Part shown: positions 14,708 to 64,000 of the stretch, piece after piece
Layout: every line of letters begins with the position of its first letter
How positions within the stretch are numbered: the stretch's first letter is position 1
NCBI GenBank assembly: GCA_016700095.1
Contig: CP065002.1
Coordinates: 867,141 to 931,140 of the forward strand
DNA length: 64,000 nt
Direction: 5' to 3'
DNA from: Candidatus Woesebacteria bacterium
GTDB taxonomy: Bacteria > Patescibacteriota > Microgenomatia > UBA8517
Translations under genes and position numbers: made by a program
The notes under the pieces: generated by a model
The model's input: the letters and a program-made list of their open reading frames with translations, nothing else
Told to the model about the DNA's origin: nothing
The model's database searches: none

Positions 14708-15139
14708 TTATTTACATTTATAAAATTCATAAACCGATATTGTGAGCCCCAAGATAAAAGCCTGAAACATATAAATCATTGTTCGCTCGGCCCACACGCC
14801 AACCCCTAGAGCGAGCAATAATTCCGCAAAGGCTAAAAAAAACAACGATATCACAAAAATAACTTTGCTAGTTGCCCCAAGCATTATTACGGCAAGAATC
14901 AAACTAATCATGACAATAATATTTATCGTTAGTGGCAAAAAGGGGTGAAAATATCCGGCAGAATGAAGCAAGACAAGAAGTATTAGAATAATATTATAGG
15001 TAAATAGACCGGAAAGATGTTTATTTGCCCATGCTTTTGTTTTGACCTCTTTATGTCCCCAAAAGGTTCTTGACAGTCGTTTATTTATGTACTTTTTTAG
15101 ATCTTTTAACATAATTATAAAGAGGAAATATGAGCACAC
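14708..15139 (-). CDS. Small 3-4 TM membrane protein, possibly a GtrA/GtcA-like lipid-sugar flippase. Function unproven.
   Basis: 143 aa with hydrophobic helices. Sits between a GtrB-like GT2 and a giant GT-C. No recognisable GtrA signature, and the true start is uncertain. Overlaps the 3' end of the upstream gene. Confidence 0.3.
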   Translation of the reverse strand: MCSYFLFIIMLKDLKKYINKRLSRTFWGHKEVKTKAWANKHLSGLFTYNIILILLVLLHSAGYFHPFLPLTINIIVMISLILAVIMLGATSKVIFVISLFFLAFAELLLALGVGVWAERTMIYMFQAFILGLTISVYEFYKCK

Positions 15140-35749: not shown

Positions 35750-36688
35750 ATGACAAAAGCACGTAAATTATCTTTTGTAATTCCTGCAAAAAATGAAGAG
35801 GGATCTATTGAGATACTCTATCAAGAAATTATTAGCGTTGTTAAAAACAAAAAGTATAACTATGAAATAGTATTTATTGACGATGGATCAACGGATAAAA
35901 CTTTTGAAAATTTCACAAAACTTAAAAAAGGCGATCCTTGTGTAAAAGTAATTAAACTAAGAGGAAACTGGGGCAAGGCGGTAGCTATGCAAGCAGGTTT
36001 TACTCATGCAACCGGTGACTTAATATTTACTTTGGATGCTGATCTTCAAGACAACCCCAAAGAGATACCAAAGTTTATTGAAAAAATTGACGAAGGATAT
36101 GACCTCGTCGTTGGTTGGAAAAAAGAACGACATGATCCTTTGAGCAAATTAATATCAACAAGATTATTCAACGGAACGGTTAAATTACTCACAGGACTCA
36201 AAATTCATGATGTAAATTGTGGGTTCAAAGCATACAAAAAGGAAGTTATAAATGATCTACCTTTGTATGGTGATCTATTTCGTTTAATTCCAGTAATCGC
36301 TCAAAAACAAAACTACAAAGTTGGAGAAGTAATTGTCGAACATCGAAAAAGAAAACACGGTAAATCTAAATTTGGCTTAGAGCGTAGTTATAAAGGTATG
36401 CTTGATCTTCTGACGGTAGTATTTTTAACAGGTTATCTCAAACGCCCTGGGCACTTTTTTGGTGGGTTAGGCTTTTTATCTTTTTTTGGAGGATTTCTCG
36501 TCGGAATGTATATCACTTTTCTTCGTTTTACAACCGGGTCAATTCAATATAGACAGCCACTTCTTTTCCTGGGAATCTTGCTTATGGTAATTGGAGTACA
36601 ATTAGTAACCACCGGTTTGTTGGCAGAGCTTACATTACATTTAAATCAGAAATCTTCTGTAGCAAATAAAACCGAAACAATTCTCTAG
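35750..36688 (+). CDS. Membrane-anchored GT2 polyprenol-phosphate sugar synthase (GtrB/ArnC/CsbB/DPM1-like)
   Basis: LSFVIPAKNEEGSI...VFIDDGSTDKT...LRGNWGKAVAMQAGF...FTLDADLQDNPKEIP, plus two C-terminal TM helices. Confidence 0.8.
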   Translation: MTKARKLSFVIPAKNEEGSIEILYQEIISVVKNKKYNYEIVFIDDGSTDKTFENFTKLKKGDPCVKVIKLRGNWGKAVAMQAGFTHATGDLIFTLDADLQDNPKEIPKFIEKIDEGYDLVVGWKKERHDPLSKLISTRLFNGTVKLLTGLKIHDVNCGFKAYKKEVINDLPLYGDLFRLIPVIAQKQNYKVGEVIVEHRKRKHGKSKFGLERSYKGMLDLLTVVFLTGYLKRPGHFFGGLGFLSFFGGFLVGMYITFLRFTTGSIQYRQPLLFLGILLMVIGVQLVTTGLLAELTLHLNQKSSVANKTETIL

Positions 36689-46430: not shown

Positions 46431-47213
46431 TTATTTTTTATCATAATAATGTAGTATTTTTAGTTTGTTATAAACAGCCAAGGTGTCCCACGCCATTTTG
46501 AATGGCGAGTTGGGATTAAATATGGGAAAAAATTGGATTCTACTTTTACCTACATTAAAGTTTAGCTCGATCGGTGCTTCGTAAATTCTTGTATATCCCA
46601 TGTGGTTTGCAAGAGCCAGCATTTCAATGTCCATGGCAAATCTATCAATTGATAGTTTGGGGAGAATTTTTTTAATGACTTCTTTTTTAAATATTTTTAT
46701 CCCGCTTTGGGTGTCTGTCAGAGATAAACCAAAAAGTAATTTAATACCGAAAGAATATCCGACACTTAGTATCCTCCTTAATAACGGGTAATCAAGTTTG
46801 GACGCAGGGTGTCGTTTACTGCCGACAATTACATCTGCATCGTACCATTCCATATGAGCGAGTAACATCATAATTCCCTTTTCTTTGATGTCGCGACCTG
46901 CATCCATGAAAGATATCAAATCTCCATTCGCTTCTTTCATACCGGTACGGACAGCATACCCCTTGCCCCTATTTTCTTTATAACTAATAAACTTGAGGTT
47001 CGAATAATGAAGTTTTTTTACCTCCGCAGAGGTGTTATCAAACTGGCCATCTTCAACGCAGATTATTTCAAAGTCGTATTTCTCCGGTAACCCTTGTTTT
47101 AATGTTTTAATCAATATTTCTAGATCCGTTTTGATAGTTTTCCCCTCCTTGTAGGAAGGAACCACAATTGAAACTAGTGTCTTTGTACTTTTCTTCATAC
47201 TACGTTTTAACAT
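46431..47213 (-). CDS. GT2, DPM1/GtrB-like glycosyltransferase (soluble)
   Basis: VSIVVPSYKEGKTI...ICVEDGQFDNT...ENRGKGYAVRTG...FMDAGRD. Confidence 0.7.
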   Translation of the reverse strand: MLKRSMKKSTKTLVSIVVPSYKEGKTIKTDLEILIKTLKQGLPEKYDFEIICVEDGQFDNTSAEVKKLHYSNLKFISYKENRGKGYAVRTGMKEANGDLISFMDAGRDIKEKGIMMLLAHMEWYDADVIVGSKRHPASKLDYPLLRRILSVGYSFGIKLLFGLSLTDTQSGIKIFKKEVIKKILPKLSIDRFAMDIEMLALANHMGYTRIYEAPIELNFNVGKSRIQFFPIFNPNSPFKMAWDTLAVYNKLKILHYYDKK

Positions 47214-48465
47214 AGTTTAAACGCTTTAATTCATTGTAACCCAGGTATACAAATAATACTAAAAGTGTAAAGCCCATAAGTATTGTATTCACATATAAAA
47301 CTTCTCTTATCGTAGAATGAACATTCCAGAGTACAAATATTTGAACGATTGAAGTGACCAATGGAAACATCACTACTTGCGTCCGGTGGATCGACAGTAA
47401 GAAATTTACAATTAAGCTTGCAAGGGTATAAAAAGTAATAAATAAACCCATCCAAACAAGTTCCGGCGCAACAATAAGATAATCCTTTCCATACAAAAGT
47501 CCAATTGCCAGGTCGGGCAGTAAATAGTAGAACACCAAAACCAAAGACGATAATAAAAAGACCGCAGAGACACTTAGATAAAAGGTTGTTCTATAATTCT
47601 CTCCCTTTGAGCGTTTACCTGCGACAATCGGAAACATAACTGAAGCGACTGGTTGCGTTGCAAAAAATATAATTTTCCCCAACATGGAAAGAGCAGCATA
47701 ATACCCTGCAATCGGATTTTCCGGACCGAAGAAATGTTTTATTATAATTAAATCAACGGTAAATATTGATGTAAATGCCATAGCTTGCAGGAGAACAGGG
47801 AAAGCAAATTTAATAATAGGATAGATATTGTAGTCTAATGAGGATTTTTCCGATATTTCCTTTTTGATGACAATTTCAGAATAATAGTATGCCATCACGG
47901 AAGACATAACTATTGCAAAAGTAGCTCCGGGAACTTTGAGTCCAAAGAAAACCAGGACGATACCTAAAAATAACTTCGCCGTACTTGAAATCGAATCGGA
48001 AACAACCACACCTGTAAATTTTAATATTCCCTGAAGGAGCGCTTTGTTTACAATTGTTAACAACATAAAATAAACAATCGGTGCTATAAAAATAAGACTA
48101 TAAAATTCGCCCAAGTGTAAAAAATTCTTCAACGGATAGGCAGATAGAAGCATAACAACACTGGCAATTATCGAAAATCTTTTAAGTAATTTTTTTAAAG
48201 TAAAATATATGTGATCTCTTTCTGATTTGCTTTTGGCTGATGATATAAATTTAACAATCGCAAAACTAGTGGAGGTTGGAATAATTCCGACAATATAAAG
48301 GATAGAGAAAATTATCGCCAAGTTTCCGTAATCAACCGGTCCAAGCACTCTTCCCATCAGAAGATGATAAATATAATTAATTCCGTTATTACCCAAACTT
48401 CCCCCAACCATCAAAAGACTACCAAGAAGCAAAGGGTTTCTAATTAAGTCTTTTGCCTTTTTCAT
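47200..48465 (-). CDS. Wzx/MurJ-like flippase (MOP superfamily)
   Basis: About 12 TM helices. Likely start MKKAKDLIRN at 48465; the ORF-track start at 48513 abuts the gmd stop. Confidence 0.6.
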   Translation of the reverse strand: MKKAKDLIRNPLLLGSLLMVGGSLGNNGINYIYHLLMGRVLGPVDYGNLAIIFSILYIVGIIPTSTSFAIVKFISSAKSKSERDHIYFTLKKLLKRFSIIASVVMLLSAYPLKNFLHLGEFYSLIFIAPIVYFMLLTIVNKALLQGILKFTGVVVSDSISSTAKLFLGIVLVFFGLKVPGATFAIVMSSVMAYYYSEIVIKKEISEKSSLDYNIYPIIKFAFPVLLQAMAFTSIFTVDLIIIKHFFGPENPIAGYYAALSMLGKIIFFATQPVASVMFPIVAGKRSKGENYRTTFYLSVSAVFLLSSLVLVFYYLLPDLAIGLLYGKDYLIVAPELVWMGLFITFYTLASLIVNFLLSIHRTQVVMFPLVTSIVQIFVLWNVHSTIREVLYVNTILMGFTLLVLFVYLGYNELKRLNYVKT

Positions 48466-48513
48466 ACAATCTTGTACGATTATACTGCAGAAAAATGAAG
48501 CGATACAGCGCAA

Positions 48514-49697: not shown

Positions 49698-50813
49698 TTA
49701 ATTGATTCCGTAAGCTTTGATTGTCTCTTTGGCCGTAATTGTCCAGTTATATTTCTTAACGTGTAATAACCCCTTGGAAATACATGTCTTTCGTTTTTTC
49801 TCGTTTTTATACAACAAACTAAAAGATTGCGCAAATCCGTCCACACTATCAGGATCAACAAAAATAGCTGCCTTTTCAGCAATTTCCACCAATGCTTGAG
49901 TTTTGCTTGCGACAACCGGAACACCGCAAGCCATGGCTTCAAGAACAGGAAAACCAAAACCTTCCGAAAACGACGGTTGGCAATATACTGTTGCCAAATT
50001 GTATATTTTTACCAAATCCTCGTCACTGACAAAACCCAATCTTTTTACTCTTGGATTATCCTTTAGTAAATCCAGTATTTGCTTGTAATGCTTAACTTCA
50101 GGATGTGGTTTTCCGAAAAGGAATCTCGCCCAATCTCTTGGTCCGTGTAGTTGGGAAATTTCCGAAGTATAATTCTCAATATAAAGCGCTTGTTTCCCCA
50201 CAATAATTAAATCGGTTTTAATTTTGTTGCATGCTTGTATTAAAGTTCCAATATTTTTGTTGTAATTGACGTCACCGACATATAAGACAAATCTTTTGGG
50301 AAGCAAATATTTCTTAACGATATTTTCTTGCCAAGTATCATTCTTTAATTGATTAAAGTGGCTAGCAGGCGCTAAATGCGTGACAAATATCTTTTCGCTT
50401 GGAATACCCAAAAACCTGACAATATCCTTTTTGGATGCCTCAGTATCGGTCACAACTGCGTAAACACGTCGCAGTTGCCTTTTTTGATCTTGTAGTTTTA
50501 CTTTACCTCGCACACCCGAAGGATACTGATTGGGGTGTAAAAGTGGTATCACGTCGTGAATTGTAACTACTATTTTAGCATCAACTTGAGGTAATTTACT
50601 TTCGTAAAGTTTGAAAAACGGAAAATGAATAATATCAAACTTATGAGCATTTTTTATAAGCGTTTGGGTGTCAAGTCCAGTTATATCTAGCGAAAACTCA
50701 CCGGCAATTTTCTCCAAACTTTCAAGTAAATATTTCGTATAAAAACCTACCCCCCTCACTTTGTCTTGTGATTTTAGGGGTCCTATGTCAATTGCTACTT
50801 TCATATCATTCAA
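49698..50813 (-). CDS. GT4 (GT-B fold) glycosyltransferase
   Basis: MKVAIDIGPLKSQDKVRGVGFYTKYLL resembles the GT4/GT1 mannosyltransferase N-terminus. C-terminal SFSEGFGFPVLEAMACGVPVVAS. Confidence 0.75.
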   Translation of the reverse strand: MNDMKVAIDIGPLKSQDKVRGVGFYTKYLLESLEKIAGEFSLDITGLDTQTLIKNAHKFDIIHFPFFKLYESKLPQVDAKIVVTIHDVIPLLHPNQYPSGVRGKVKLQDQKRQLRRVYAVVTDTEASKKDIVRFLGIPSEKIFVTHLAPASHFNQLKNDTWQENIVKKYLLPKRFVLYVGDVNYNKNIGTLIQACNKIKTDLIIVGKQALYIENYTSEISQLHGPRDWARFLFGKPHPEVKHYKQILDLLKDNPRVKRLGFVSDEDLVKIYNLATVYCQPSFSEGFGFPVLEAMACGVPVVASKTQALVEIAEKAAIFVDPDSVDGFAQSFSLLYKNEKKRKTCISKGLLHVKKYNWTITAKETIKAYGIN

Positions 50814-51210: not shown

Positions 51211-51954
51211 TTACTTATAATCAGACGGGTAAAGCGTGATTTCAGCCTCATATTCATCTTTCTCAATTATAGCAATAAATTTGTCAGCTACCCACGAAGG
51301 AGTAAAATATGATTTGCCTCGTAAATTTTCCTCAATTTTATCTTCCAGAGACAGTGGGCCGAAATCAGTTAATGTACTACCTAAGTCTATATGAACAAAA
51401 TGAATATTCGACCCATGATATTCAGCGGCAAGTGACAAAGTCATTCCCCTCAAGGCATATTTCGTGGCACAATATACACTCCTGCAAGGAGTAGGGATTT
51501 TACCCATACCCGAACCCACATTTATAACGACAGAGTCCTCGGATTTTTTAAGGTGAGGCAGAAGTTCTTTTGTTAAGTAAAAGGGTGTCGTTACGTTTAT
51601 CGCAACACTATCTTCCCATTCATTAATACCTGCATCTTCTAAACTTTTGTATACACCAACACCAGCTGCATTTACCAAAATATCAATTTTTTCAGTTAAA
51701 CCCAGTATCTTTTCCGCCGTCTCTTTAACTTTTTGTGTTTTTGTTGCATCCATTTGAATGTACTCATGACCATCTCCATCGAGTCTGTCAATCAAATCCT
51801 TGAGTTTACTTTCAGTCCTAGACAGTAAAATAAGTTTCACTCCCTTTTGGGCTAACTTAACTGAAAGTACTGAGCCAATTCCACCAGTTGCACCTGTAAT
51901 AACCGCCGTTTTATTTTTCAAATTCATACTTGATATTACCATATTCGTATTCAC
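51211..51954 (-). CDS. Classical short-chain dehydrogenase/reductase (SDR)
   Basis: KTAVITGATGGIGSVLSVKLAQKG (TGxxxGxG), NAAGVG, and the catalytic YCATKYAL (YxxxK). The start may be ATG at 51927. Confidence 0.8.
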   Translation of the reverse strand: MNTNMVISSMNLKNKTAVITGATGGIGSVLSVKLAQKGVKLILLSRTESKLKDLIDRLDGDGHEYIQMDATKTQKVKETAEKILGLTEKIDILVNAAGVGVYKSLEDAGINEWEDSVAINVTTPFYLTKELLPHLKKSEDSVVINVGSGMGKIPTPCRSVYCATKYALRGMTLSLAAEYHGSNIHFVHIDLGSTLTDFGPLSLEDKIEENLRGKSYFTPSWVADKFIAIIEKDEYEAEITLYPSDYK

Positions 51955-52979: not shown

Positions 52980-54182
52980 TTGTTGCAAATGAAAAAATAC
53001 TACGGCGAAGAAACGCGAAAGGCGCTTGATAATTTCCACATGACCAACACCCCGGTTGATCTTCGTTTGATTAAAGCGGTCGCAATTGTAAAACTTGCAG
53101 CCATTAAAGCAAACGTAAAAACCGGCAAAATAAAAAGAGAGCTCGGTCGACCGATAATCAAGGCGGCTAAAGAAGTAATTGACGGAAAACTTGACACTCA
53201 ATTCCCGACCGACCAAATCCAAGGTGGTGCCGGTACGTCAATAAATATGAATGTAAATGAAGTGATTACATCTCGAGCAAATGAAATACTAGGCAGTAGT
53301 TCTATTCATTATTTAGATCATGTCAATTCATCGCAATCAACAAACGATGTAATTCCAACCGCTATAAGAATCGTAATTCTTGAAGAGCTCGGCAAATATT
53401 TGATTTCGTTAAATAAATTGTCAATTACATTTGCCAAAAAAGAAAAAGAGTTTTGCAATATTGTTAAAGTAGGAAGAACCCATTTGCAAGACGCTGTACC
53501 GATTACCTTGGGTCGAGAATTCGGCGCATACAAGAATTTAATCAAAAGAGATATTAAAAGACTTGAGGAAATAAAAAAATATCTTCTTATCACCAATCTG
53601 GGTGGTACAGCAATCGGAACAAGTGAAAATGCTTCCAAAGACTATATCACAGCTATTCATGAATACTTAGAAATGGAAACGGGCTATAAATTCACACCAT
53701 CACATGACTTAGTCGATGCTACTCAAAACATCGACCCCTTGATCCACGCTTCGTATCTCATACAGCTTTCCAGTGTGGGAATATCCAAAATTTGTAGTGA
53801 CTTAAGACTACTTGCCTCAGGACCGCGTGCAGGGTTAGCTGAAATACTTTTACCATCATACCAAAAAGGTTCAAGCATAATGCCGGGAAAAACTAACCCC
53901 GTTATACTGGAAGCTTTTAACCAAGTCACATATCAGGTAATTGGCAATACCCAAGTAGCTACACAAGTAATTCTTGCCGGTGAACTAGAGTTGAACACCA
54001 TGCTTCCCGTTTTTTCAAAGACGATAATAGAGTCATTAACTTTTTTAACCAACGGCATCAATTCGGTAAATGATACCGTTTCAACAATAAAGGCAAATTC
54101 CGAAAAAATTCAATCTAACCTTGATACTAGTCTTGTACTGTCGACTCAATTGTCAAAATTCATTGGATACGACAGAGCATAG
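52980..54182 (+). CDS. Class II fumarase/aspartase-family lyase, terminated by an in-frame TAG about 40 codons before the expected end
   Basis: Signature GSSIMPGKTNP (the GSSxMPxKxN motif), and YGEETRKALDNF at the N-terminus. The protein ends ...IGYDRA* while homologs continue. Confidence 0.75.
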   Translation: MLQMKKYYGEETRKALDNFHMTNTPVDLRLIKAVAIVKLAAIKANVKTGKIKRELGRPIIKAAKEVIDGKLDTQFPTDQIQGGAGTSINMNVNEVITSRANEILGSSSIHYLDHVNSSQSTNDVIPTAIRIVILEELGKYLISLNKLSITFAKKEKEFCNIVKVGRTHLQDAVPITLGREFGAYKNLIKRDIKRLEEIKKYLLITNLGGTAIGTSENASKDYITAIHEYLEMETGYKFTPSHDLVDATQNIDPLIHASYLIQLSSVGISKICSDLRLLASGPRAGLAEILLPSYQKGSSIMPGKTNPVILEAFNQVTYQVIGNTQVATQVILAGELELNTMLPVFSKTIIESLTFLTNGINSVNDTVSTIKANSEKIQSNLDTSLVLSTQLSKFIGYDRA

Positions 54183-54308
54183 TTTCTGGTGACTAAAGCT
54201 ATTGAACACACATCTCAACTAAAAGACGAAGCTATAAACGACAACATCGATGCTCATATAATTGACGCGGTGTTTGGTAAAACAAAGACCGTGAAGAAGT
54301 TTTATTAA
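54183..54308 (+). other. In-frame continuation of the fumarase-family ORF after the TAG (41 codons), retaining homology to the fumarase C-terminus
   Basis: FLVTKAIEHTSQLKDEAINDNIDAHIIDAVFGKTKT is read in the same frame immediately after TAG. This parallels FumC ...[25 protein letters not shown].... Confidence 0.45.
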
Positions 54309-55177
54309 GACTTAATACTCCCTACCCAATACTTCCAATAAGCAAGGGGGAAGTGCATCGCCGAGTAAGCTGACCACAGAAAACCGCGAATTCCATCTTT
54401 GTAACCTTTGTGGCGGATAAATAACATAACAAAAAGATAAGTGGGTTTAATAAATGAAAAATACATAAATTTCCTTTTATTTTTTTTGATTCCAACTTTT
54501 TCCATTTGTCCAGCCGTTATACTTGTATATCTATCGGCGCGATAAAGATAACGATCCAAAGTAGGAGATTCATGGTGTTCAAGATCATTAAACAACCAAG
54601 CAATTTCCCCATCAACTTCCATCAGTTCATGAACGCTTTTGGCAGGTAAACGAGCTTTCCCCTGTTTAATTAAACGAATTACGGCATCCGGATAAACTCC
54701 TGCATGCTTAAGCGGTTTACCGACAAAGTAATTTATACGAGGAATAAAAAATGCACATATTTCACCGGTTTCTTTTCCCAAAGAACCATCTCTTTGCCTA
54801 ATAATTTTTTCGTGTCTTTGGAATAGCTTCCATTTTTTAAGATCTATAATCTTCCTTGACCTTATTTTGTCGTCGTTATTATTTAATATGTTTTGTATTT
54901 CAATTGCTAATTCCTTGGAAACTCTTTCGTCAGCATCAAGTTGTAATATCCAATCTCCTTTTGCTTTTTCGATGGCAAATTGCTTTGTCTGATGGAAGTT
55001 TGTTGTGTGTTTGAATTCATATACTTTAGCACCACATTCTCTGGCAATTGCTATAGTTTTATCAATTGAACCATCGTCAACCACGATTATCTCATCAGCA
55101 ATTGATTTTACGGACAGTAAACAACTTTTTATATTATTTTGTTCGTTTTGAACCGCAAGAACAACTGATAATTTCAT
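54305..55177 (-). CDS. GT2 glycosyltransferase
   Basis: LSVVLAVQNEQNNI...IIVVDDGSIDKT...LQLDADERV (DXD). Confidence 0.75.
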   Translation of the reverse strand: MKLSVVLAVQNEQNNIKSCLLSVKSIADEIIVVDDGSIDKTIAIARECGAKVYEFKHTTNFHQTKQFAIEKAKGDWILQLDADERVSKELAIEIQNILNNNDDKIRSRKIIDLKKWKLFQRHEKIIRQRDGSLGKETGEICAFFIPRINYFVGKPLKHAGVYPDAVIRLIKQGKARLPAKSVHELMEVDGEIAWLFNDLEHHESPTLDRYLYRADRYTSITAGQMEKVGIKKNKRKFMYFSFIKPTYLFVMLFIRHKGYKDGIRGFLWSAYSAMHFPLAYWKYWVGSIKS

Positions 55178-55183
55178 AGTGAA

Positions 55184-56608
55184 TTAATACCAAAACTGAT
55201 CTTGAAAATTAATAATAGTTTTGATATTTAGGTGGAGAGCAATTATTGTAAATATAACTAAAATTACTTGCACGATTCTCTTAATAATATTATTATTCGT
55301 TAATTCATACAACATTGGTGGTGTAAGTAATCCTACAAAAGTGTATTGAAATTTTCTAATTTCACTGAGACCAAATTTCTTTTCACCAGTACCATAAATA
55401 TAACTTGAAGCAAACGGAACTGTTAAGACAAAAAAGGTAGAAAGTAATTTTGGTTTTTTTATAACATTTATTATGACATCCGCCATTGCCCATGCTAAGA
55501 ACGGGTAAAAGGGAATTCTATACCAACCTTTGCTGTGCCCTGACATAATGAAAAAAAACACCAAATACGACCCGAGAAAAACTGGAATTATAATATCTTT
55601 TAAGTTTATCTTCCTCCTTTCTCTACTTTGAATACCAATAGCAAATGCTGATATCCAACCAAAAATAATCCAACCATCAACATCCATAACTTTCTCGCCT
55701 ATCCTATATGTAACAAACAAACTAAATATATTCCCTGGTAGATATAACTCCCTACCGCTTGACACATTAATAATTTTGAGAAATATATCTATGTTATAAA
55801 AATATCCATAAACAAACCACGCGAAGACAAAAAGAAATATTGTCCCGGCTAAAACAAGTGATTGTTTGTAGTATTTTAACGCAAATAGGCATCCAAACAC
55901 TGCAATGGGAACGAATATACCAGGAGTTTTATACATTAAACTCGAAGCGCTAACAAAAGAAAGAAGCAAGAGTACAATTATGTTTTTTCTTTTTGTATAT
56001 ATCAACAAAAGCAAAATTGACAACATTGAAGAAAAAGCTATCATGTTCTCGGATAACACCAAACGACTACTTAAAACGAAAGTGGGCACAGTAGCATAGA
56101 TCATAGATGCCAAAAGTGCCTCTATATATCCATGCGTTAACCAAACAACAATAAAAAGTATAAATATACTAAGGGTTGCCAGTTTTATCATCGGATATCT
56201 AACAAGCCCGACATCAACATTTTCGAGATCATATATTCCTTTTGTATACAAATAGCCACCGGTTAACAAACCAAATCCGGGTGGTTCATCAAACCACGGC
56301 TTCACCATTCTAAATTTAGTTCCTCTTATTGTTACCATTGGGAAATCTCCATAATCATCCCAAAAAGACCATGAACTAGGTACTTTATCCTTAATCAGGC
56401 TTAGTCCATTAAAAGGAGCTTTGTATTCATCAGCGGTGTCATTGATTGGGGGGAAAAACGTAAATTTTTCCATACGCAAGTTAAAGCCAAGTCTCGCAAC
56501 TATATATGCAGTAATTAGAACGACAATTAGTTTAGCTGTTTTGTGCGTATTAAAATAGTTTATAACTTTATGTATTCTTTCTCTCAATATTTTATATGTT
56601 ATCGACAT
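55184..56608 (-). CDS. GT-C glycosyltransferase, PMT_2/GT39-like (474 aa)
   Basis: VKPWFDEPPGFGLLTGGYLYTKG is a DE-containing first-loop motif. About 11 TM helices. Confidence 0.6.
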   Translation of the reverse strand: MSITYKILRERIHKVINYFNTHKTAKLIVVLITAYIVARLGFNLRMEKFTFFPPINDTADEYKAPFNGLSLIKDKVPSSWSFWDDYGDFPMVTIRGTKFRMVKPWFDEPPGFGLLTGGYLYTKGIYDLENVDVGLVRYPMIKLATLSIFILFIVVWLTHGYIEALLASMIYATVPTFVLSSRLVLSENMIAFSSMLSILLLLIYTKRKNIIVLLLLSFVSASSLMYKTPGIFVPIAVFGCLFALKYYKQSLVLAGTIFLFVFAWFVYGYFYNIDIFLKIINVSSGRELYLPGNIFSLFVTYRIGEKVMDVDGWIIFGWISAFAIGIQSRERRKINLKDIIIPVFLGSYLVFFFIMSGHSKGWYRIPFYPFLAWAMADVIINVIKKPKLLSTFFVLTVPFASSYIYGTGEKKFGLSEIRKFQYTFVGLLTPPMLYELTNNNIIKRIVQVILVIFTIIALHLNIKTIINFQDQFWY

Positions 56609-56626: not shown

Positions 56627-57904
56627 TTATAATTTATTTATTATATTTGCCACCTTTTCACCCAATTCAACTGCGTAATTTGTTCCTCTATCCCAAGGAT
56701 AAACTTGTTGAATGTTAGCTAAGTACAGACCTTCAATTGGAGTTTCAAAAGGTGGTATTTGCTTAGAATAATTAAGGGGAATTATTGGTTGTGCAAACGA
56801 AGCCTTGAATACATAGCTATCATTTATCCAAGACTTATTAAAAGATCGATTAATTCTTTTTAACGACGTGGTAAATTCATTAACGAGTGCTTCTTGTGTA
56901 TATGAGAAATACTTATGATTAACGGGTAAATAATTTCCAATATAAACTAAGTTTTCATCGTTGTAGTGTTTTTTATCTATAAGATGTGTATGTTCGACAA
57001 CAGCGAGAAATGGAAACGATGTATCGTTCACATTTAACCAATAAGTATTGTCTTTTAGAAATTCGTGTTTTAATGACAACAGAAGTGTTATGGCGCCCAA
57101 TCCCTTAAGCGGTTTTAAACTATTTATATAACCTTGGGGTAACCCGCTTGTTAATTTTATAAACATACTCGTTGGAAGAGTGCAAATCACAAAATCATAT
57201 TCGTTAGGTGTTCGCCCCTTGTTTGTGATTAATATTCCCTTTTTAGTTTTTTCAATTCCAATTGTTTCTTCATTGTAAATAATTTTTCCTCCTTCTTTCT
57301 GAAATTCATCTGCGATGCTTTGCGCAAACGCTTGAAAACCCTCCTCGGGATATCCCAAAGCCGAACTTCTTTTTTTTATTCTTGCCCAAAACCATGATGC
57401 CGGAATCTCTTTGGAGAAGTCACCAAACTTACCTTCCATCAAAGGTTGCCAAATTAATTGCCAAGATTTTCTACCCATATATCTTTCCAGATAATTATGA
57501 GCAGTCTGCGATTCCATTTTTTTCCAAAAAGGCGTAGTTTTTAAATAAGCAAGTACCATGCCGGTTCGAATCCTGTCAGTTACGGATAATTGGGAAAATT
57601 GCAGTAAACTTAAGGGGCTGTCAAGTTGAAATAATTCATCTTTAATAATAACTGATGTTTTTGGTCTAGAAAAAATTATCGGGTGATGTATTTCTTTGGC
57701 AAGTTTTTTGATATACGTATCTGAAGTAAACCAATGATGATAGTGTTCTTCAATAGCCCACTCCCATTTGCCGGCTCGAAAGCCACTCGCCAAACCGCCG
57801 GGTTTTGATGAGGATTCATAAATAGTTACACCGTGTCCCTTTTTTGCCAAAGTTAAACCAGCCGTTAGGCCCACATAACCAGCACCGATTATTCCAATTT
57901 TCAT
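56627..57904 (-). CDS. Rossmann-fold FAD/NAD(P)-dependent oxidoreductase (amine-oxidase / protoporphyrinogen-oxidase / UDP-galactopyranose-mutase-like superfamily)
   Basis: MKIGIIGAGYVGLTAGLTLAKKGHGVTIYESSSKPGGLASGF is a GxGxxG dinucleotide-binding motif followed by an acidic residue and GG. 425 aa. Confidence 0.6.
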   Translation of the reverse strand: MKIGIIGAGYVGLTAGLTLAKKGHGVTIYESSSKPGGLASGFRAGKWEWAIEEHYHHWFTSDTYIKKLAKEIHHPIIFSRPKTSVIIKDELFQLDSPLSLLQFSQLSVTDRIRTGMVLAYLKTTPFWKKMESQTAHNYLERYMGRKSWQLIWQPLMEGKFGDFSKEIPASWFWARIKKRSSALGYPEEGFQAFAQSIADEFQKEGGKIIYNEETIGIEKTKKGILITNKGRTPNEYDFVICTLPTSMFIKLTSGLPQGYINSLKPLKGLGAITLLLSLKHEFLKDNTYWLNVNDTSFPFLAVVEHTHLIDKKHYNDENLVYIGNYLPVNHKYFSYTQEALVNEFTTSLKRINRSFNKSWINDSYVFKASFAQPIIPLNYSKQIPPFETPIEGLYLANIQQVYPWDRGTNYAVELGEKVANIINKL

Positions 57905-57906
57905 AA

Positions 57907-59553
57907 TTAATTTGCTACAATTTTATAAGCGGTACTACCATTTGGAAACTTAATAGTCTTAACAATATTAGCCGCATCAGGAATTTCCTCATCAGTCCCA
58001 ACTATGAGTGAATTAGGATAAGTGTTGGGGGTGTTGGGCCATTCAATTGAATTAAATCTAAACTTTTCAAATTCTCTGACAGTTGAAAAACCATACCCAT
58101 CACGAGGGGACAAAACATGTGCTCCCTGAAATTCGGCGGTGGGAACTTTGAGATAAAACAAAGTTAAAATGTATGGTTGATCATACCGATCAGTAATAAT
58201 TATATAATCAAACTCATCTTTCACACTTTCAACATAAGAGATCATTTCTTGAAATCCGTATTGCGAAGAATAAGGATATGCACGAGGCATGTGAAAATTA
58301 TATAAATATTCATATCTCGCAAACGACCAGACTAACATGATGAACATAATTGGAAATAATGTGTATTTTAATAAAGTATTTTGTTTAAATATATTAAGCA
58401 TGTTTGTCAAACCATATGCCGATATAAGGCAAAGGGGTATTATCATGTTATGAGAACGAAGTGCATGTGGCGATTGAAAAGTTAATGCGGCAGCAAAAGG
58501 AGCAATCAAAAGCCACCAAAGCATAAAACTCCATTTACTATTTACTCCTCTTGAAATGAAATAAAGGCCAGCGATCAAAAGCAGTGAATCAATCAAATAC
58601 ATCTGGCCGTGGTCGGGGACTTTATTGCGTTGAATATCATCGCCTGATATAAACAAAAAGTCTCCCGAGAAGTGCTCTCCCCAATTTTCTGCAATCGCAA
58701 TAGCATAATTTACGAGTTTGTTGTGGATTAATTCAGCCACTAGACCATCAACGTTTTCATGTTCGCCGCGCTGTTCATTAATTTTATTTAATGGTCCAAT
58801 ATCAGCAAATATTCCTACTCCGGCGGCACGCGACATACCTGCCTCTCCGGTTAAATCTTTTGCAAGCGGCAGCAGAAGGACCAATCCGAAGATCCCAGCA
58901 ATTAGTATGGGTTTAAAATTTTTCAGTAAATATTTAAAATTACTAAGTACATATCCAAGTAATAAAAGTGGGATCACAATTCTTGCGGCATGATAAGTAT
59001 ATAGGCCAAGGACAAAAAACAAAGATGAGTATTTGAAATACCTAGTATTCTTAGCGGATTTCACCAGGAACAAGACACCTATTGTTATAAAAAACGTAGC
59101 AATATTTACTTCCCATCCACCTCTTGAAAAATGTATATGCCACGGAGAAATAGCCAAAAATAATGCTGCAATAGTAGGAAAATCGAGTGTCAAATTTAAT
59201 ATTTTTATTTTTACGTCTTTTCCGCGTAGTTCTTTGGCTAATAGGTAGATAAGAATAATAGTTGCAGTTCCCATTAGCGCGCCGGGGGCTCTTACCACCC
59301 ATATGTTAAGACCCAATAGTTTAACAAACGGCAATACAATATAGAAATATAAACCTGGTTTATAATCATTAAACGATTGGAAGTGAAGCGGCCATGCGTT
59401 GCCGTGTTCATCCATTCCTGTATTTACCAAACTCCAAGCATTGTAACCAATTGCAGCCTCGTCGGCGTTTAATGCAGGCAATGTGTTTAATCTATTAAAT
59501 CGCAAATACAACCCTAAAATTAGTATTAATATTATCAATATGTTTTTTCTCAT
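57907..59553 (-). CDS. GT-C glycosyltransferase, ArnT/PMT (GT39/PMT_2)-like. Tandem paralog 1 of 4.
   Basis: LRFNRLNTLPALNADEAAIGYNAWSL (DE motif), WHIHFSRGGWE motif, about 12 TM helices. Confidence 0.7.
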   Translation of the reverse strand: MRKNILIILILILGLYLRFNRLNTLPALNADEAAIGYNAWSLVNTGMDEHGNAWPLHFQSFNDYKPGLYFYIVLPFVKLLGLNIWVVRAPGALMGTATIILIYLLAKELRGKDVKIKILNLTLDFPTIAALFLAISPWHIHFSRGGWEVNIATFFITIGVLFLVKSAKNTRYFKYSSLFFVLGLYTYHAARIVIPLLLLGYVLSNFKYLLKNFKPILIAGIFGLVLLLPLAKDLTGEAGMSRAAGVGIFADIGPLNKINEQRGEHENVDGLVAELIHNKLVNYAIAIAENWGEHFSGDFLFISGDDIQRNKVPDHGQMYLIDSLLLIAGLYFISRGVNSKWSFMLWWLLIAPFAAALTFQSPHALRSHNMIIPLCLISAYGLTNMLNIFKQNTLLKYTLFPIMFIMLVWSFARYEYLYNFHMPRAYPYSSQYGFQEMISYVESVKDEFDYIIITDRYDQPYILTLFYLKVPTAEFQGAHVLSPRDGYGFSTVREFEKFRFNSIEWPNTPNTYPNSLIVGTDEEIPDAANIVKTIKFPNGSTAYKIVAN

Positions 59554-59555
59554 AA

Positions 59556-61268
59556 CTAGAATACCTTATATCGATTTACATTTGACTCATCAAGAACCTC
59601 AACAAGTCTAAAAATCATCTCACCGGTTGGTAAGGTAATTTCTCCGATTTGTTTAAATTCTCCCGGATCAACTGAATCCTGGATTGGAATTGTCTCGGAA
59701 TCCGCAGCAAACAATGTACCAAAGTCTCCACGCGCTGTCGTCCAATTTAAGTATTCAAAACTTATATTATCAAGATTTGTCACCCTACCAACATCACCAT
59801 ACCTGCTTTCTTCTAGGTATGCATTTTTTTGATAAGTCGCAGGATCGTATTTCTGATAAAAAAGAAAATAAATATACGGTTGAGCATACGTAAAATGTAT
59901 TTTTACTTTTTTATAATCATGTTGGATTGGTGTAATTATTTCGACTAGTTGTTTATATCCATAATCCCAATATCTCGCGTTATGAATTGGTTGGTGAACG
60001 AAATATGCATCGAGAAAATAAAATACACTCGCCAAATACAATAAAAATACTCCTAAAATGCCAACATATTTCACCTTACCCCATTCCGACACTTTCTGTG
60101 AAAAGAAAGACAGACCAAAAGCAGTCACTACTACCAAAGGAATAACCATGTTATAAGACCTCACTGCATGAATTTGGTCGCGCGATAAGGCGGATGGCAA
60201 AGGAGCAAGCAAAAGCCAAAGTAAAATGAAACGAGCACCTGTGTTGTTAGCATTTATCAAAATATATAGACCGCAAAGTAAAAAAAGTGAATCAACAAAT
60301 AGCATTTCTCCCGAGCTGGGAGCTGAATGTCTGGGATTTTGCCAATCACCCTCAAAAAATAGAAATCTCGGAGAAAAGTGATTGAACCACCTTCCCATAA
60401 TTCCCTTGGTTATATTTAGATTTTCAGAATAATAAAGATAGTATTCCGGCGATCCAAATTTAACATCCGCAGTCGCCAAAAGATCCGTTAGATATTCTTG
60501 CGGCCTTGTATATGAAAACACGCTAAACACCTTCAGCCGTCCAGTTTCCCCTTTTGAAAATGATGCAATTATTGGAAATGCCACAATCAGTCCAACAAAA
60601 AAAGACAACACTAAAACTTTTAAGTTAATCTTACTAATTTTCTTTCTGTAAATAATTGCAAGAAGAAATAGAACTATTAGACTGGAAAGTTTCGCGCCTT
60701 GATAGGCAGTCAATGTCGCTCCGAAAGATAGTGCAGCAGGTATCAGATATTTATTATTTGTAAACGATTTTAGAACACAATATATCCCCAAAAGTGTCAA
60801 TGTTAACGCTATGTTAATTTCCCAAGCACCTCGTGAAAAATGAATGTGCCAGGGTGAAATAGCAAGGATAAGTGATGATAATAACGCCGGAGAAAATACT
60901 CCTTTATTTTTTTTATTTTCTACTTCTAATAATAAATTGACAATATGATAAATTATAAAAACTGCAAATATTCCTGAAAGTGAACTGGCCAAACGAACAG
61001 ACACTTCATTAAGGTCAAAAAGAAATACAAACGGAACTGTGGCGTATACATACAAACCGGGTTTGTAATCTCCAAAGGATTTAAATACAATCGGGAGCAG
61101 TTTTCCATATTCATCACGTCCTGTTTTTAGAATCGAGTATGCGTTATAACCAAGCGCCGCCTCATCGGGAGTTAAATGTGGTGGATTTACTCCCAGATTC
61201 CATATTCGCAAAAAGGCAGCAATTACCAATATAGCTAGAAGTGAATAACGTTTCATGTATTGTCTCAT
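59556..61268 (-). CDS. GT-C glycosyltransferase, ArnT/PMT (GT39/PMT_2)-like. Tandem paralog 2 of 4.
   Basis: LRIWNLGVNPPHLTPDEAALGYNAYSI, WHIHFSRGAWE. About 50% amino-acid identity to paralog 1 in the N-terminal region. Confidence 0.7.
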   Translation of the reverse strand: MRQYMKRYSLLAILVIAAFLRIWNLGVNPPHLTPDEAALGYNAYSILKTGRDEYGKLLPIVFKSFGDYKPGLYVYATVPFVFLFDLNEVSVRLASSLSGIFAVFIIYHIVNLLLEVENKKNKGVFSPALLSSLILAISPWHIHFSRGAWEINIALTLTLLGIYCVLKSFTNNKYLIPAALSFGATLTAYQGAKLSSLIVLFLLAIIYRKKISKINLKVLVLSFFVGLIVAFPIIASFSKGETGRLKVFSVFSYTRPQEYLTDLLATADVKFGSPEYYLYYSENLNITKGIMGRWFNHFSPRFLFFEGDWQNPRHSAPSSGEMLFVDSLFLLCGLYILINANNTGARFILLWLLLAPLPSALSRDQIHAVRSYNMVIPLVVVTAFGLSFFSQKVSEWGKVKYVGILGVFLLYLASVFYFLDAYFVHQPIHNARYWDYGYKQLVEIITPIQHDYKKVKIHFTYAQPYIYFLFYQKYDPATYQKNAYLEESRYGDVGRVTNLDNISFEYLNWTTARGDFGTLFAADSETIPIQDSVDPGEFKQIGEITLPTGEMIFRLVEVLDESNVNRYKVF

Positions 61269-61321
61269 GTTACTGACAAAATCTAATTTGCTCTTTGCGA
61301 TATATAATTCTAATTGACAAG

Positions 61322-63148
61322 CTATTGATTAGCATATATTTCAAAGGCGGGTTCATTATTCAAAAAGTATACAGTTTCGTATTTTTTCCATCCACTAGGC
61401 ATATTTCCGGGTGAGGTGATTAACAAACATTTTATTTCATTGCAATTAATATCCCCACCACTTTCAAGCACAAAGTGGTTTTCTTCTCTATCGCCACTTT
61501 TTATTTGCCAATCATTGACAAAATAAAACTTATCAAATGCATCTACCCAAAACCATTCCGTTTGCTCAAAACGAATGAGATTCGGATCATTCCGATACGA
61601 CTCGGGTTTCCATCGCCATGGCGCCCCACCCCCAACCCCTCCGTAGAAAAGAAAAAATTCGTGAGGTTCACCGTATTTTTTAGTCACTATTATTTTGTCG
61701 TAATCGTAATAGTACTGTTTAGTGTATTGAACTACTTGTTGATACCCGTATTGCCAACTCCATGAATAGTTACTTCTATATGAAGTAAAGTATCCATGCA
61801 AATAGTTCTCGGCGGATAAGATTATCAAGAAAATATAAATTGGTGTTATTATCCATGCCATATTTTTTAAAGTTATACGTTTTCCCTTGTTAACGAAATT
61901 CATAAACGTTAAATAACCAAATGCAGTTATAATCATTGGTGAAGGAAGCATTGTCGAGGAACGTAAAACATGTGGTGCTTCCCGAGTAATACTCGACGCA
62001 ATAGGTCCGACAAAAAACCAAAAAAGAATAATATTTCCTACTCTGTTTTTTAGTCTCAACAAAGCAAAGACTCCGATTACAAGAAATATTGCGTTAATAA
62101 TATAGAGTAACCCGTGTTTGGGAACGCTAAACTGATATTGACTACCGCCGTCGGTAAACAAATAATCACCCTTAAAATGAGATGTCCAATTGCTTGCTGC
62201 CTTTTTAATAAAAAATGTTCCCTTATTATGTAAAGCCCGTGCTATAAACGGACTATAAGGTGATGAATTTCGTAATTCATCAATTTGTGCAATTGCACCC
62301 TCGTCAACTATTTCCACTTTACTGTATCTAGCTTGTCCAGCAGGATTAACCAATTGAGCAAACATGGAAGCTGTAAAGAAAAAGAGAATGATAAACGAGA
62401 ATTTTACCAAATGTACATTTCTAAGATAAATCCCTGCAATTTCCAACCTATAACCTAAAACTAAAATTACGACAAACAAGGGAACAAATATCCTTGCTGA
62501 ATTGTAGGTCCAAACGGCTAATCCAAAAAATACTGCCGACCAAACTAAATTCATATATTTTTTCTCTGCCGATATTAGCAAGTAGGTCGCAAACGTAATG
62601 AAAAAGAGCGCAAGATTAGCCTCAAAAGCTGCACGGGAAAGAAATAGTGTCCAGGGTTCAATAGCAACAAGAAACGCTGTAAGTAAAGAGAGATTTTTTA
62701 ATCTTTCTTTTGACGCTATTTCGTTTTGGAAAAGCGTATGTGTCAAGAAATAAGAAACAATTACCAACCCGACACCGGCAAGCATTGAGGGTAATCTCAC
62801 TGCTAGTGTATTTACACCAAATAGTTTTTCCGATAATGCTGTAACATAAATATACACCGGCAATTTATAATCTCCATAAGCACGAAATATTGTTGGCATC
62901 TTCTTACCCCATTCGTCATATCCCGAAGAAAGAAGTGAATATGCATTATAACCATGGCTCACCTCATCCCAATTTAGCGATGGGGGTGTATTGTCAATAG
63001 CTACAAACCGTACAAGAATGGAAAAAACCACAATAGAAAGAAGTGTCATGTTTTTTGTGTTTCTTACTTTGTGAATTACAGGACACGATAAAACACCCCG
63101 ACCACAATTTCGCAGTAAATATTTTATAGTTTTTCTCATAGATTTCAT
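61322..63148 (-). CDS. GT-C glycosyltransferase, ArnT/PMT (GT39/PMT_2)-like. Tandem paralog 3 of 4.
   Basis: DNTPPSLNWDEVSHGYNAYSLL (DE motif). Multiple TM helices and a soluble C-terminal domain. Confidence 0.65.
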   Translation of the reverse strand: MKSMRKTIKYLLRNCGRGVLSCPVIHKVRNTKNMTLLSIVVFSILVRFVAIDNTPPSLNWDEVSHGYNAYSLLSSGYDEWGKKMPTIFRAYGDYKLPVYIYVTALSEKLFGVNTLAVRLPSMLAGVGLVIVSYFLTHTLFQNEIASKERLKNLSLLTAFLVAIEPWTLFLSRAAFEANLALFFITFATYLLISAEKKYMNLVWSAVFFGLAVWTYNSARIFVPLFVVILVLGYRLEIAGIYLRNVHLVKFSFIILFFFTASMFAQLVNPAGQARYSKVEIVDEGAIAQIDELRNSSPYSPFIARALHNKGTFFIKKAASNWTSHFKGDYLFTDGGSQYQFSVPKHGLLYIINAIFLVIGVFALLRLKNRVGNIILFWFFVGPIASSITREAPHVLRSSTMLPSPMIITAFGYLTFMNFVNKGKRITLKNMAWIITPIYIFLIILSAENYLHGYFTSYRSNYSWSWQYGYQQVVQYTKQYYYDYDKIIVTKKYGEPHEFFLFYGGVGGGAPWRWKPESYRNDPNLIRFEQTEWFWVDAFDKFYFVNDWQIKSGDREENHFVLESGGDINCNEIKCLLITSPGNMPSGWKKYETVYFLNNEPAFEIYANQ

Positions 63149-64000
63149 TTTAAAGCAAATTCCGTCGAACTGGGATTAACAAAATAAATCGCCGTCTCGC
63201 CACTGGGATAAGCAACTTCATACTCAGGTACGGTATTTAATGGAAATTCTTCTTTCTTTCCCACCAGTAATGTCTTACCTAAATATTTTCGTTTTTCGAA
63301 ATCAATATTTTCAAACTTGATATTTCCCAATGAATAACTTCCAAGTTGGTCGAGAAATTTTAAATTTAGATCGCGATATCTACCCCAATTTTTTGCTTCA
63401 CCTTGAACCATCTTAGGGTCATATTCGTTGTAAAAGGCAAAATAAATATGGGGTTCGGAAAGTGTACGACTCACAATTATAAACTGATATCCTTTTATAT
63501 TATTTAAATACTTAACCATGTCCTTTCTTCCATAAAGCATAGATGGCGCGGTGACGTAAGCCGACTTGCCAAAATACTGATAAGAAAACTCAATTAAGTT
63601 AAAACCAATAAGTGCTGCCAATGTAATTACGAGAAGTCGTCTTTGGGGCACCGACACATTATCAATTCTAATAAGTGTGAGTATCCAATAAGCACCAATT
63701 GCCATGGCAATTTGTAAGGCAGGAAGCATTATCACCGATCTGTTACCAGCAAAACCGACACCTGTAGACAGCGCTGCAGGAATCGGAGCACACACTAACC
63801 AAAAAACAATTAACCACATCTCCTTCAGGTGTCTATACTTAACCACGCCGACAAGAAATGCAAAAAGTAGTATCAATTCAAATGGATAGATTACTCCACG
63901 GCCCGGTATCATTCCATACGTCGCTTCGGCAGGTCCGTGGTCTACGAGAAATTTGAGTGAATAGTATTGTTTATAGTTTTCAAAGAATCTATTAGTAGTA
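63145..64000 (-). CDS. GT-C glycosyltransferase, ArnT/PMT-like. Tandem paralog 4 of 4. Partial: the N-terminus lies beyond the window end.
   Basis: Hand translation shows the frame stays open upstream of the internal Met at 63912 to the window end (...NRFFENYKQYYSLKFLVDHGPAEATYGMIPG...). WLVCAPIPAALS aligns with WWLLIAPFAAALT and WLLLAPLPSALS of paralogs 1 and 2. Confidence 0.6.
   Translation of the reverse strand, partial: TTNRFFENYKQYYSLKFLVDHGPAEATYGMIPGRGVIYPFELILLFAFLVGVVKYRHLKEMWLIVFWLVCAPIPAALSTGVGFAGNRSVIMLPALQIAMAIGAYWILTLIRIDNVSVPQRRLLVITLAALIGFNLIEFSYQYFGKSAYVTAPSMLYGRKDMVKYLNNIKGYQFIIVSRTLSEPHIYFAFYNEYDPKMVQGEAKNWGRYRDLNLKFLDQLGSYSLGNIKFENIDFEKRKYLGKTLLVGKKEEFPLNTVPEYEVAYPSGETAIYFVNPSSTEFALK

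Follow-up and report, generated by a model that had tools for sequence, protein, structure and literature searches.

A conserved tandem array of four GT-C glycosyltransferase paralogs in Woesebacteria and related Microgenomates

At one end of a 64,000-nucleotide stretch of contig CP065002.1 from a Candidatus Woesebacteria bacterium (here called the window, meaning the whole stretch analysed), four consecutive minus-strand open reading frames (ORFs) encode paralogous GT-C glycosyltransferases, which we name P4, P3, P2 and P1 in the order of the array. Three of them are complete, and P4 is cut by the window edge. Woesebacteria and related Microgenomates share this tetrad as a conserved feature: its genes are homologous to one another, every one of them belongs to an orthogroup of its own, their order is kept across species, and the outer-side DE motif and a set of shared residues are retained. 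We consider it probable that P4-P3-P2-P1 is an ancient co-transcribed array of polytopic PMT_2/ArnT-like GT-C enzymes that perform non-redundant transfers on the outer face of the membrane. The finding is incremental and probably conventional, since the proteins were already annotated as members of glycosyltransferase family 39 (GT39) and both their fold and the chemistry expected of them are usual among GT-C enzymes. Nothing in the results contradicts current knowledge. The conserved Microgenomates tetrad itself was not found described in the literature.

Results

Four divergent paralogs in a head-to-tail array

The initial annotation of this DNA, made from its letters alone, described four consecutive minus-strand paralogs, which the ORF calls and the phmmer comparisons bear out. 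It also gave all four proteins as 548–608 amino acids (aa) long; this holds for the three complete genes and not for the part of P4 that lies in the window. The genes and the codons of their main motifs are:

57907–59553, minus strand: P1, 548 aa, GT-C fold glycosyltransferase (GenBank QQS38642.1, 'glycosyltransferase family 39 protein')
59556–61268, minus strand: P2, 570 aa (566 aa in QQS38643.1), paralogous GT-C glycosyltransferase
61322–63148, minus strand: P3, 608 aa (605 aa in QQS38644.1), paralogous GT-C
63145–64000, minus strand: P4, C-terminal 284 aa only, with the frame open up to base 63999
59458–59463, minus strand: Asp31-Glu32 codons of the P1 DE motif, first extracytoplasmic loop, presumed catalytic acid pair
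61161–61166, minus strand: DE motif codons of P2
62963–62968, minus strand: DE motif codons of P3
59117–59155, minus strand: DNA for AISPWHIHFSRGG, the motif of the second extracytoplasmic loop in P1 (P2 counterpart at 60826–60864)

P1 to P3 are held in GenBank as QQS38642 to QQS38644 under the same title and the same organism name, Candidatus Woesebacteria bacterium. The genes are packed as in an operon: the stop codon of P4 overlaps the start of P3 (junction of -4 nt, ATGA), 53 nt lie between P3 and P2, and 2 nt between P2 and P1. A further 2-nt gap separates P1 from the next gene, the oxidoreductase OX. Between the array genes, terminator-like sites were not found beyond chance level, and promoter and terminator counts were both at chance. 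In the array region there is a single homopolymer of at least 8 bases, a T8 inside P2 at 60907, and no repeat tracts occur at the gene starts of the array. The K/R-rich leader with a phase-variation-free start, which had been singled out as a special pattern, merely follows the positive-inside rule. The start of P3 is uncertain, as a 33-residue N-terminal extension, MKSMRKTIKYLLRNCGRGVLSCPVIHKVRNTKN, precedes a second Met that opens the first transmembrane (TM) helix. Judged from the reading frame, the real start may be this internal Met34, which would give a protein of 575 aa.

The part of P4 beyond the window is visible on a Logan assembly contig (L001, run SRR11674018 from groundwater, 7.9 kb), which agrees with the window along 7098 nt without a single mismatch and has an identical gene order. 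On this contig P4 is at least 554 aa long, its start not being reached, and carries TPDEAS and SPWHIMMSRGGFE.

The paralogs are clearly homologous by phmmer (E-values of 5e-78 for P1-P2, 1e-75 for P1-P3 and 4e-61 for P2-P3), and the P4 fragment matches P2 with an E-value of 5e-12. Pairwise identity among the window paralogs is just 24–32%. They are so divergent from each other that they cannot be assembly duplicates, an artifact that the low identity and the mismatch-free L001 contig together exclude. A resemblance in TM composition alone is likewise excluded, by the phmmer E-values and by motifs that run throughout the alignment. No kinship to the other PMT-like genes of the window was detected: neither P0, a PMT-type gene farther downstream, nor any other window ORF matched P1–P4 by phmmer at E<1. 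Judged by sequence similarity, P1–P4 appear to be a separate, tighter family than the other GT-C genes of the window.

Three motifs had been ascribed to all four proteins, and they fared differently. The DE motif is present in the three complete genes, as ADEAA in P1, PDEAA in P2 and WDEVS in P3; that of P4 lies outside the window and is the TPDEAS seen on L001. D31 and E32 are invariant among 27 P1 orthologs and at least 90% conserved over all four orthogroups, as are D48, D63, K65 and E148. R88, S143, R144, R242 and R366 are invariant over the four orthogroups, and by these residues all four paralogs appear catalytically intact. The PDEAxxGY motif of the first extracytoplasmic loop (EL1) is ArnT/PMT-like. 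The second motif, WHIHFSRG followed by (G/A)WE, occurs within the window in P1 and P2 only; P3 has WTLFLSRAAFE instead, and the SR motif of P4 lies outside the window. P137, W138, S143, R144 and E148 of this second-loop motif are kept in all orthogroups. The DNA still aligns here, as had been noted, with 32 of 39 bases identical between the P1 string at 59117 and the P2 string at 60826. The third motif is loose and varies from WWLLIAPFAAALT in P1 to LWLLLAPLPSALS in P2, FWFFVGPIASSIT in P3 and FWLVCAPIPAALS in P4. Around NARYWDYGYKQL, P2 has a YWDYGY directly past the last TM helix that resembles the WWDYG of oligosaccharyltransferases. W.YGY is kept across the P2 orthogroup, and YG alone across all four groups.

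The tetrad is kept in order across Microgenomates

We compared 80 species-level loci with 10-kb flanks, taken from GTDB genomes of Woesebacteria, Blackburnbacteria, Shapirobacteria and other Microgenomates, and classified every ORF of these loci by phmmer against the window proteins. P1 is the final gene of the array and has the highest conservation among its members. Its orthologs in public data are numerous and 53–60% identical to it, compared with 32% for P1 and its own neighbours. The closest homologs are ~60% identical, and synonymous sites are saturated. Orthologs at the same position score 400–690 bits, against 200–250 bits between paralogs. In 69 of 79 loci a P2-type gene occupies position -1 relative to P1, in 65 a P3-type gene stands at -2, and in 57 a P4-type gene follows at -3 or -4, always without a change of strand. 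The count of complete tetrads was limited to the 60 loci that have 6.5 kb or more of upstream DNA; of these, 51 carry the ordered set P4>P3>P2>P1. The family as a whole is large, with ~4,700 representatives (50%-identity clusters) found by the P1 profile at E<=1e-30.

Mean identity within the orthogroups is 0.55 for P1, 0.50 for P2, 0.48 for P3 and 0.45 for P4, and 0.30–0.34 between them. A neighbour-joining tree of 361 sequences separates every orthogroup as a clean split (72/72, 71+1, 69+2 and 60+2). Because every position has its own ortholog, the order is fixed and the splits are clean, the duplications must be ancient. By these comparisons they predate the divergence of the candidate phyla sampled, with every copy retained since. 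The origin by duplication proposed in the initial annotation is supported. Its picture of a glycan-diversifying locus, formed by serial duplication and still diversifying, is not, in view of the fixed orthologs in 80 genomes and the purifying selection described below.

Many tetrad-bearing GTDB records (L002, L003, L006 and others) carry the title 'uncultured Gammaproteobacteria bacterium', and 'Clostridia bacterium' is the title of one. These titles are doubtful because the loci share 50–56% identity and full synteny with Woesebacteria, and they look like placeholders or mislabels. In two loci of more distant Microgenomates, L078 (Curtissbacteria) and L073, tandem arrays of 5–7 family members reach only paralog-level scores of 250–290 bits to P1–P4, and the L078 arrays lack a clear 1:1 orthology to them. 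Such arrays reflect either an independent re-expansion or divergence past the point of 1:1 orthology.

The copies differ in stable, copy-specific outer regions

EL1, the catalytic loop, is the most conserved region of every orthogroup, with an identity of 0.67–0.76 within orthogroups and 0.52 between them. The corresponding values are 0.44–0.59 and 0.23 for the large outer loop (EL4) and 0.38–0.59 and 0.27 for the C-terminal domain. The paralogs are thus told apart by the large loop that follows TM7 and by a C-terminal domain of 120 aa, and each orthogroup has near-invariant signatures of its own in both. In comparisons between paralogs, identity is lowest in the extracytoplasmic loop and the C-terminal domain (15–33%), which confirms the C-terminal extracytoplasmic divergence first noticed in the window. 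The suggestion that the copies differ in acceptor or linkage specificity gains partial support, in that they differ mainly on the extracytoplasmic side, where such specificity would sit.

The regions that diverge between paralogs are conserved inside each orthogroup, which indicates that the copies are under purifying selection. The pattern is that of old sub- or neo-functionalisation under such selection. The catalytic machinery is common to the copies, and the likely acceptor-binding parts are copy-specific yet stable.

Family assignment and predicted fold

The Pfam family PMT_2 (PF13231) has a gathering threshold of 26.1 bits. P1 (28.6 bits) and P3 (31.1 bits, E 3e-7) exceed it and P2 (24.7 bits) falls below; the visible part of P4 has no PMT_2 match, the relevant region lying beyond the window. 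PMT (PF02366) passes for P3 alone (E 1e-6, 28.7 bits). Precomputed PF13231 matches exist for most orthologs, and PF02366 matches for many P1 orthologs. The paralogs are PMT_2/ArnT-like GT-C glycosyltransferases, as the initial annotation had it; its 'GT39-like' label draws on weak PMT_2/PMT Pfam matches (E 1e-5 to 1e-7), some of them below the gathering score. No PMT_4TMC or MIR domain was matched by Pfam in any paralog at E<=0.01; the MIR domain is a feature of eukaryotic GT39 PMT members. Pfam also gave no match of the paralogs to the STT3 family. NCBIfam has no specific family for P1–P4, its ArnT model does not match, and Agl23 stays sub-threshold (24.8 against a cut-off of 126).

An AlphaFold2 model of P1, built with 27 orthologs, has a pLDDT of 80 and a pTM of 0.85, with ~11 TM helices followed by a C-terminal alpha/beta domain. 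Compared with known structures, the model scores 22.3 with STT3B, 22.2 with AglB, 22.0 with ALG12, 20.9 with ArnT, 19.3 with Pmt4, 17.3 with PglB and 16.9 with AftD. P1 is thus predicted to have a GT-C fold about equally near STT3/AglB, ALG12, ArnT and Pmt4. The same top matches (AftD, ArnT, STT3, AglB, PglB) are typical of bacterial PMT_2/YfhO-type GT-Cs (PMC8035078), so the oligosaccharyltransferase matches are not specific. GT-C enzymes usually carry a DxD, or a modified form of it, in one of their extracellular loops (PMC8035078). The paralogs have the marks of the GT-C superfamily: the polytopic fold common to STT3, ArnT, PMT and ALG proteins, and an acidic motif in the first extracytoplasmic loop. 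At the level of sequence, the P1 profile found nothing relevant among solved structures. The best PDB match of a four-orthogroup profile was ArnT (5EZM), which at E 0.075 is not significant, with DYKPP aligned to the KPP stretch of ArnT.

On our reading of the model, the shared motifs all lie on the outer side. Loop 1 would carry DE and loop 2 PW..SR..E; FLF..G and P..G would fall in the large loop that follows TM7, an ..R before TM10, and YG past the last helix.

Neighbouring genes and variable surroundings

Downstream of P1, the window carries the following genes.

56627–57904, minus strand: OX, 425 aa, FAD-dependent oxidoreductase (Pfam Amino_oxidase, E 1e-20)
55184–56608, minus strand: P0, 474 aa, PMT-type GT-C (Pfam PMT, E 4e-6), between OX and GT2a
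54305–55177, minus strand: GT2a, 290 aa, GT2 family (QQS38639.1; Pfam Glycos_transf_2, E 2e-18)
52980–54182, plus strand: Lyase_1 gene, fumarase/aspartase-type, only 400 aa
51992–52924, plus strand: putative DHH-family phosphoesterase-like gene, assigned from reading the sequence
51211–51954, minus strand: SDR, recurring in a minority of loci
49698–50813, minus strand: GT4a, 371 aa, GT4 family (Pfam Glycos_transf_1, E 4e-30)

In 61 of 63 loci GT2a lies no more than 5 kb downstream of P1; it has no predicted TM segment, which makes it a soluble protein. GT4a, downstream of GT2a, is kept in about 50 of the 63. OX matches NCBIfam PRK07233 with 399.7 bits, above the cut-off of 252, and stands between P1 and GT2a in 13 of the 63 loci only. 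OX and SDR flank the conserved GT2a. An oxidase and reductase pair beside GT-C genes recalls the DprE1/DprE2 epimerisation of a lipid-linked sugar, as a resemblance only. The plus-strand DHH-like and Lyase_1 genes break the GT2a-SDR-GT4a run, which is contiguous in most related genomes.

P0 is held in GenBank as QQS38640.1, a 'phospholipid carrier-dependent glycosyltransferase' called as 429 aa from a shorter start. It is a distant PMT-type GT-C without a phmmer match to P1–P4, and none of the 80 related loci has a counterpart of it. By this distribution, P0 is a lineage-specific insertion into a conserved operon, outside the conserved array. The surroundings also vary upstream: a fifth orthogroup (28 members) is found upstream of P4 in 21 loci, extra family copies stand between P4 and P3 in 13 loci, and the remaining copies are heterogeneous. 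The 'diversifying' idea may apply to these surroundings of the array, and not to P1–P4.

The array lies in a glycan island

The window as a whole is a glycan island: besides ~16 polytopic GT-C-like genes it holds numerous GT2 and GT4 genes, along with methyltransferases and enzymes that modify sugar nucleotides. The GT-C-like genes are PMT_2, AftD-like or YfhO-like, or encode proteins with 9–13 TM helices and no Pfam match. With ~16 such genes, the 1.27-Mb main contig devotes a very large coding share to extracytoplasmic glycosylation. Examples and further island genes are:

1–1392, minus strand: GT-C-like
3333–4724, minus strand: GT-C-like
7642–10350, minus strand: GT-C-like
10434–12458, plus strand: GT-C-like
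12490–13980, plus strand: GT-C-like
15081–18038, minus strand: GT-C-like
18022–19680, minus strand: GT-C-like
23351–25321, minus strand: GT-C-like
28919–30994, minus strand: GT-C-like
36689–38773, minus strand: GT-C-like
55184–56608, minus strand: GT-C-like (P0)
32694–33614: GT2, full-length PgfS match (E 4e-73), two C-terminal TM helices
35750–36688: GT2, full-length ArnC match (E 8e-51), two C-terminal TM helices
13977–14705: shorter GT2, Dpm1/AglJ/PpgS-like
28044–28808: shorter GT2, Dpm1/AglJ/PpgS-like
46431–47213: shorter GT2, Dpm1/AglJ/PpgS-like
6393–7697: Wzx flippase
47200–48513: Wzx flippase
25318–27987, minus strand: membrane protein, 889 aa, ~7 TM helices, with an F5/8 type C (discoidin, galactose-binding-like) domain

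By their family matches, the ArnC/PgfS-like and Dpm1/AglJ/PpgS-like GT2s are plausible makers of polyprenyl-phosphate sugar donors. Several of them adjoin a GT-C gene of the island (for example 35750–36688 with 36689–38773, 28044–28808 with 28919–30994, and 13977–14705 with 12490–13980), and these neighbours look like classic synthase and GT-C pairs. In a complete Woesebacteria genome (L038), the neighbourhood follows the same logic and comprises the tetrad, GT2a, SDR, GT4a, a Wzx flippase, a GT2 and an F5/8-type-C protein. The F5/8 type C membrane protein recurs in the glycan island of that genome at 17459–19879 and may be an acceptor- or glycan-binding component.

Discussion

The arrangement suggests a mechanism in which each of the four enzymes would take a sugar from a polyprenyl-phosphate-sugar donor, as the fold and the candidate synthases of the island imply. 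On the outer side of the cytoplasmic membrane, each would then attach it at its own position or to its own acceptor in a single conserved surface glycoconjugate, so that the four steps would be non-redundant. GT2a and GT4a would probably assemble the precursor on the cytoplasmic side, before a Wzx-type flippase moves it across. The acceptor would be a glycolipid, a wall polymer or a protein. In Gram-positive bacteria, PMT_2-type GT-Cs glycosylate wall polymers together with a C55-P-sugar synthase and a flippase (PMC8035078).

Several points weigh against this picture. The Pfam scores are near the gathering threshold and lend the family only weak support. GT2a, the adjacent conserved GT2, is a soluble protein outside the GtrB/ArnC type, and the donor source was assigned from genes 20–40 kb away. 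P2 or P4 is absent in some lineages (9 of 60 loci), so not every step is indispensable. The idea of sequential steps on one glycan is inferred from co-conservation, and parallel action on separate acceptors, or hetero-oligomers, would yield the same pattern. In addition, the literature search for GT-C arrays in Microgenomates or Woesebacteria returned none.

The alternative that survives best is that P1–P4 are strict GT39 protein O-glycosyl(mannosyl)transferases, which would act as obligate hetero-oligomers in the style of yeast Pmt1-Pmt2 or mycobacterial EmbA-EmbB and modify secreted and surface-exposed proteins, for example S-layer or pilus subunits. The GenBank label, the PF02366 matches of P3 and of many P1 orthologs, and the agreement of the DE motif with the PMT loop-1 motif speak for it, and the strict co-inheritance of the paralogs is what obligate heteromers would show. 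However, Pfam found no MIR or PMT_4TMC domain, the structural matches to PMT are no better than those to STT3, AglB, ALG12 and ArnT, and among solved structures only ArnT comes near a significant sequence match (E 0.075). Characterised bacterial PMT_2 proteins, moreover, modify glycopolymers (PMC8035078). We therefore regard this alternative as unlikely, if the least so of those considered.

A much less probable view is that at least one paralog is an oligosaccharyltransferase or ligase, transferring a glycan en bloc from polyprenyl-diphosphate to protein or wall in the manner of STT3, AglB or PglB. The (W)xYG conserved directly past the last TM helix occupies the site of the oligosaccharyltransferase WWDYG, P2 having YWDYGY there, and the island holds Wzx flippases for diphosphate-linked units. 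Against this, oligosaccharyltransferase structures are generic top matches for bacterial PMT_2/YfhO GT-Cs (PMC8035078), Pfam gives no STT3 match, the WWD part is conserved in no orthogroup, the EL1 motif PDEAxxGY is ArnT/PMT-like, and the KPP stretch of ArnT is matched by DYKPP. The WWDYG reading of P2 was set aside, only YG being conserved across the four orthogroups.

The initial annotation took the array for a glycan-diversifying locus, with recent serial duplication, ongoing and possibly positive diversification, and a copy content that varies between strains. The paralogs do differ most in the extracytoplasmic loop and C-terminal domain, variable accessory paralogs surround the core (the extra copies between P4 and P3 in 13 loci and the heterogeneous ones upstream of P4), the window carries ~16 GT-C-like genes, and P0 is lineage-specific. 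For P1–P4 themselves the idea is nonetheless very hard to maintain. Their orthologs are 45–55% identical and in a fixed order in 51 of 60 loci, the orthogroups are clean clades, and the divergent loop and C-terminal domain are conserved inside each of them (38–59%). The paralog identity of only 30–34% also points to old duplications.

We give scarcely any credence to a single catalytic paralog with the rest as degenerate pseudo-enzymes serving as scaffolds or acceptor-binding subunits, for which one could cite the divergent second motif of P3 and the speculation that small GT-Cs might depend on partner proteins to bind their acceptors (PMC8035078), because D31, E32, D48, D63, K65 and E148 are at least 90% conserved, R88, S143, R144, R242 and R366 are invariant, and EL1 is the most conserved region in each orthogroup.

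An ancient array of four non-redundant outer-face transferases is thus the reading we prefer. The surface chemistry of Candidate Phyla Radiation (CPR)/Patescibacteria is almost unknown, and the tetrad offers a handle on their surface glycans. Four distinct GT-Cs whose order is the same in dozens of species speak for a conserved extracytoplasmic glycan and not for a variable antigen. For heterologous expression the tetrad supplies a well-delimited set of genes, and for comparative studies a marker. More tentatively, and with considerable doubt, the tetrad and its GT2/GT4 partners might form a lineage-defining core envelope machine, a 'luminal-type' assembly line that builds one conserved surface glycoconjugate. 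If so, its product could be central to the surface-building of these ultra-small, presumably host-attached cells, and the orthogroups would mark four fixed linkages of the polymer.

Comparison with known systems

The bacterial multi-component glycosylation systems with PMT_2 GT-Cs (GtlB, GttB, GacL, CsdD/F, GtsC, YkcB) share with P1–P4 the Pfam PMT_2 signature (above threshold in P1 and P3), the 8–13 TM helices, the acidic motif in an outer loop and the structural top matches, and here, too, the island contains GtrB/ArnC-like synthases of C55-P-sugars as well as flippases. In those systems a single GT-C is coupled to a single neighbouring GT-A synthase, whereas here there is a four-GT-C array and the adjacent GT2 is soluble and not GtrB-like. 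Unlike the adjacent pairing in three-component systems, the synthase-like GT2s and Wzx flippases of the island do not adjoin P1–P4.

ArnT (GT83, undecaprenyl-phosphate-L-Ara4N:lipid A transferase; PDB 5EZM/5F15) has a similar size of ~550 aa, with a TM bundle and a ~120-aa C-terminal periplasmic alpha/beta domain, and is the best sequence-level match among solved structures. However, that match is not significant (E 0.075), the identity is 12%, and the NCBIfam ArnT model does not match. Patescibacteria are generally held to lack lipid A, and the acceptor must therefore differ from that of ArnT.

Mycobacterial embCAB encodes three tandem paralogous GT-C arabinosyltransferases, each with its own acceptor, that use polyprenyl-phosphate sugar donors. 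It resembles the tetrad as a head-to-tail set of paralogous GT-C genes kept as an array across a lineage. It differs in that Emb proteins are ~1100 aa long with carbohydrate-binding modules and are structurally far less similar than STT3, ArnT or ALG12, and in having three copies where the Microgenomates array has four, often five or six.

ALG3/ALG9/ALG12 and Pmt1/2/4 (GT58/GT22/GT39) are likewise paralogous GT-Cs. They act one after another in a set order (ALG) or form obligate dimers (PMT), and work on the non-cytoplasmic face with a polyprenyl-phosphate mannose donor. They are eukaryotic and unclustered in the genome, the sequence identity is ~10–13%, and P1–P4 have no MIR domain. The logic we propose for the tetrad would be that of the ER-luminal (endoplasmic reticulum) ALG3/9/12 enzymes or of the mycobacterial EmbC/A/B, Aft and Mpt enzymes.

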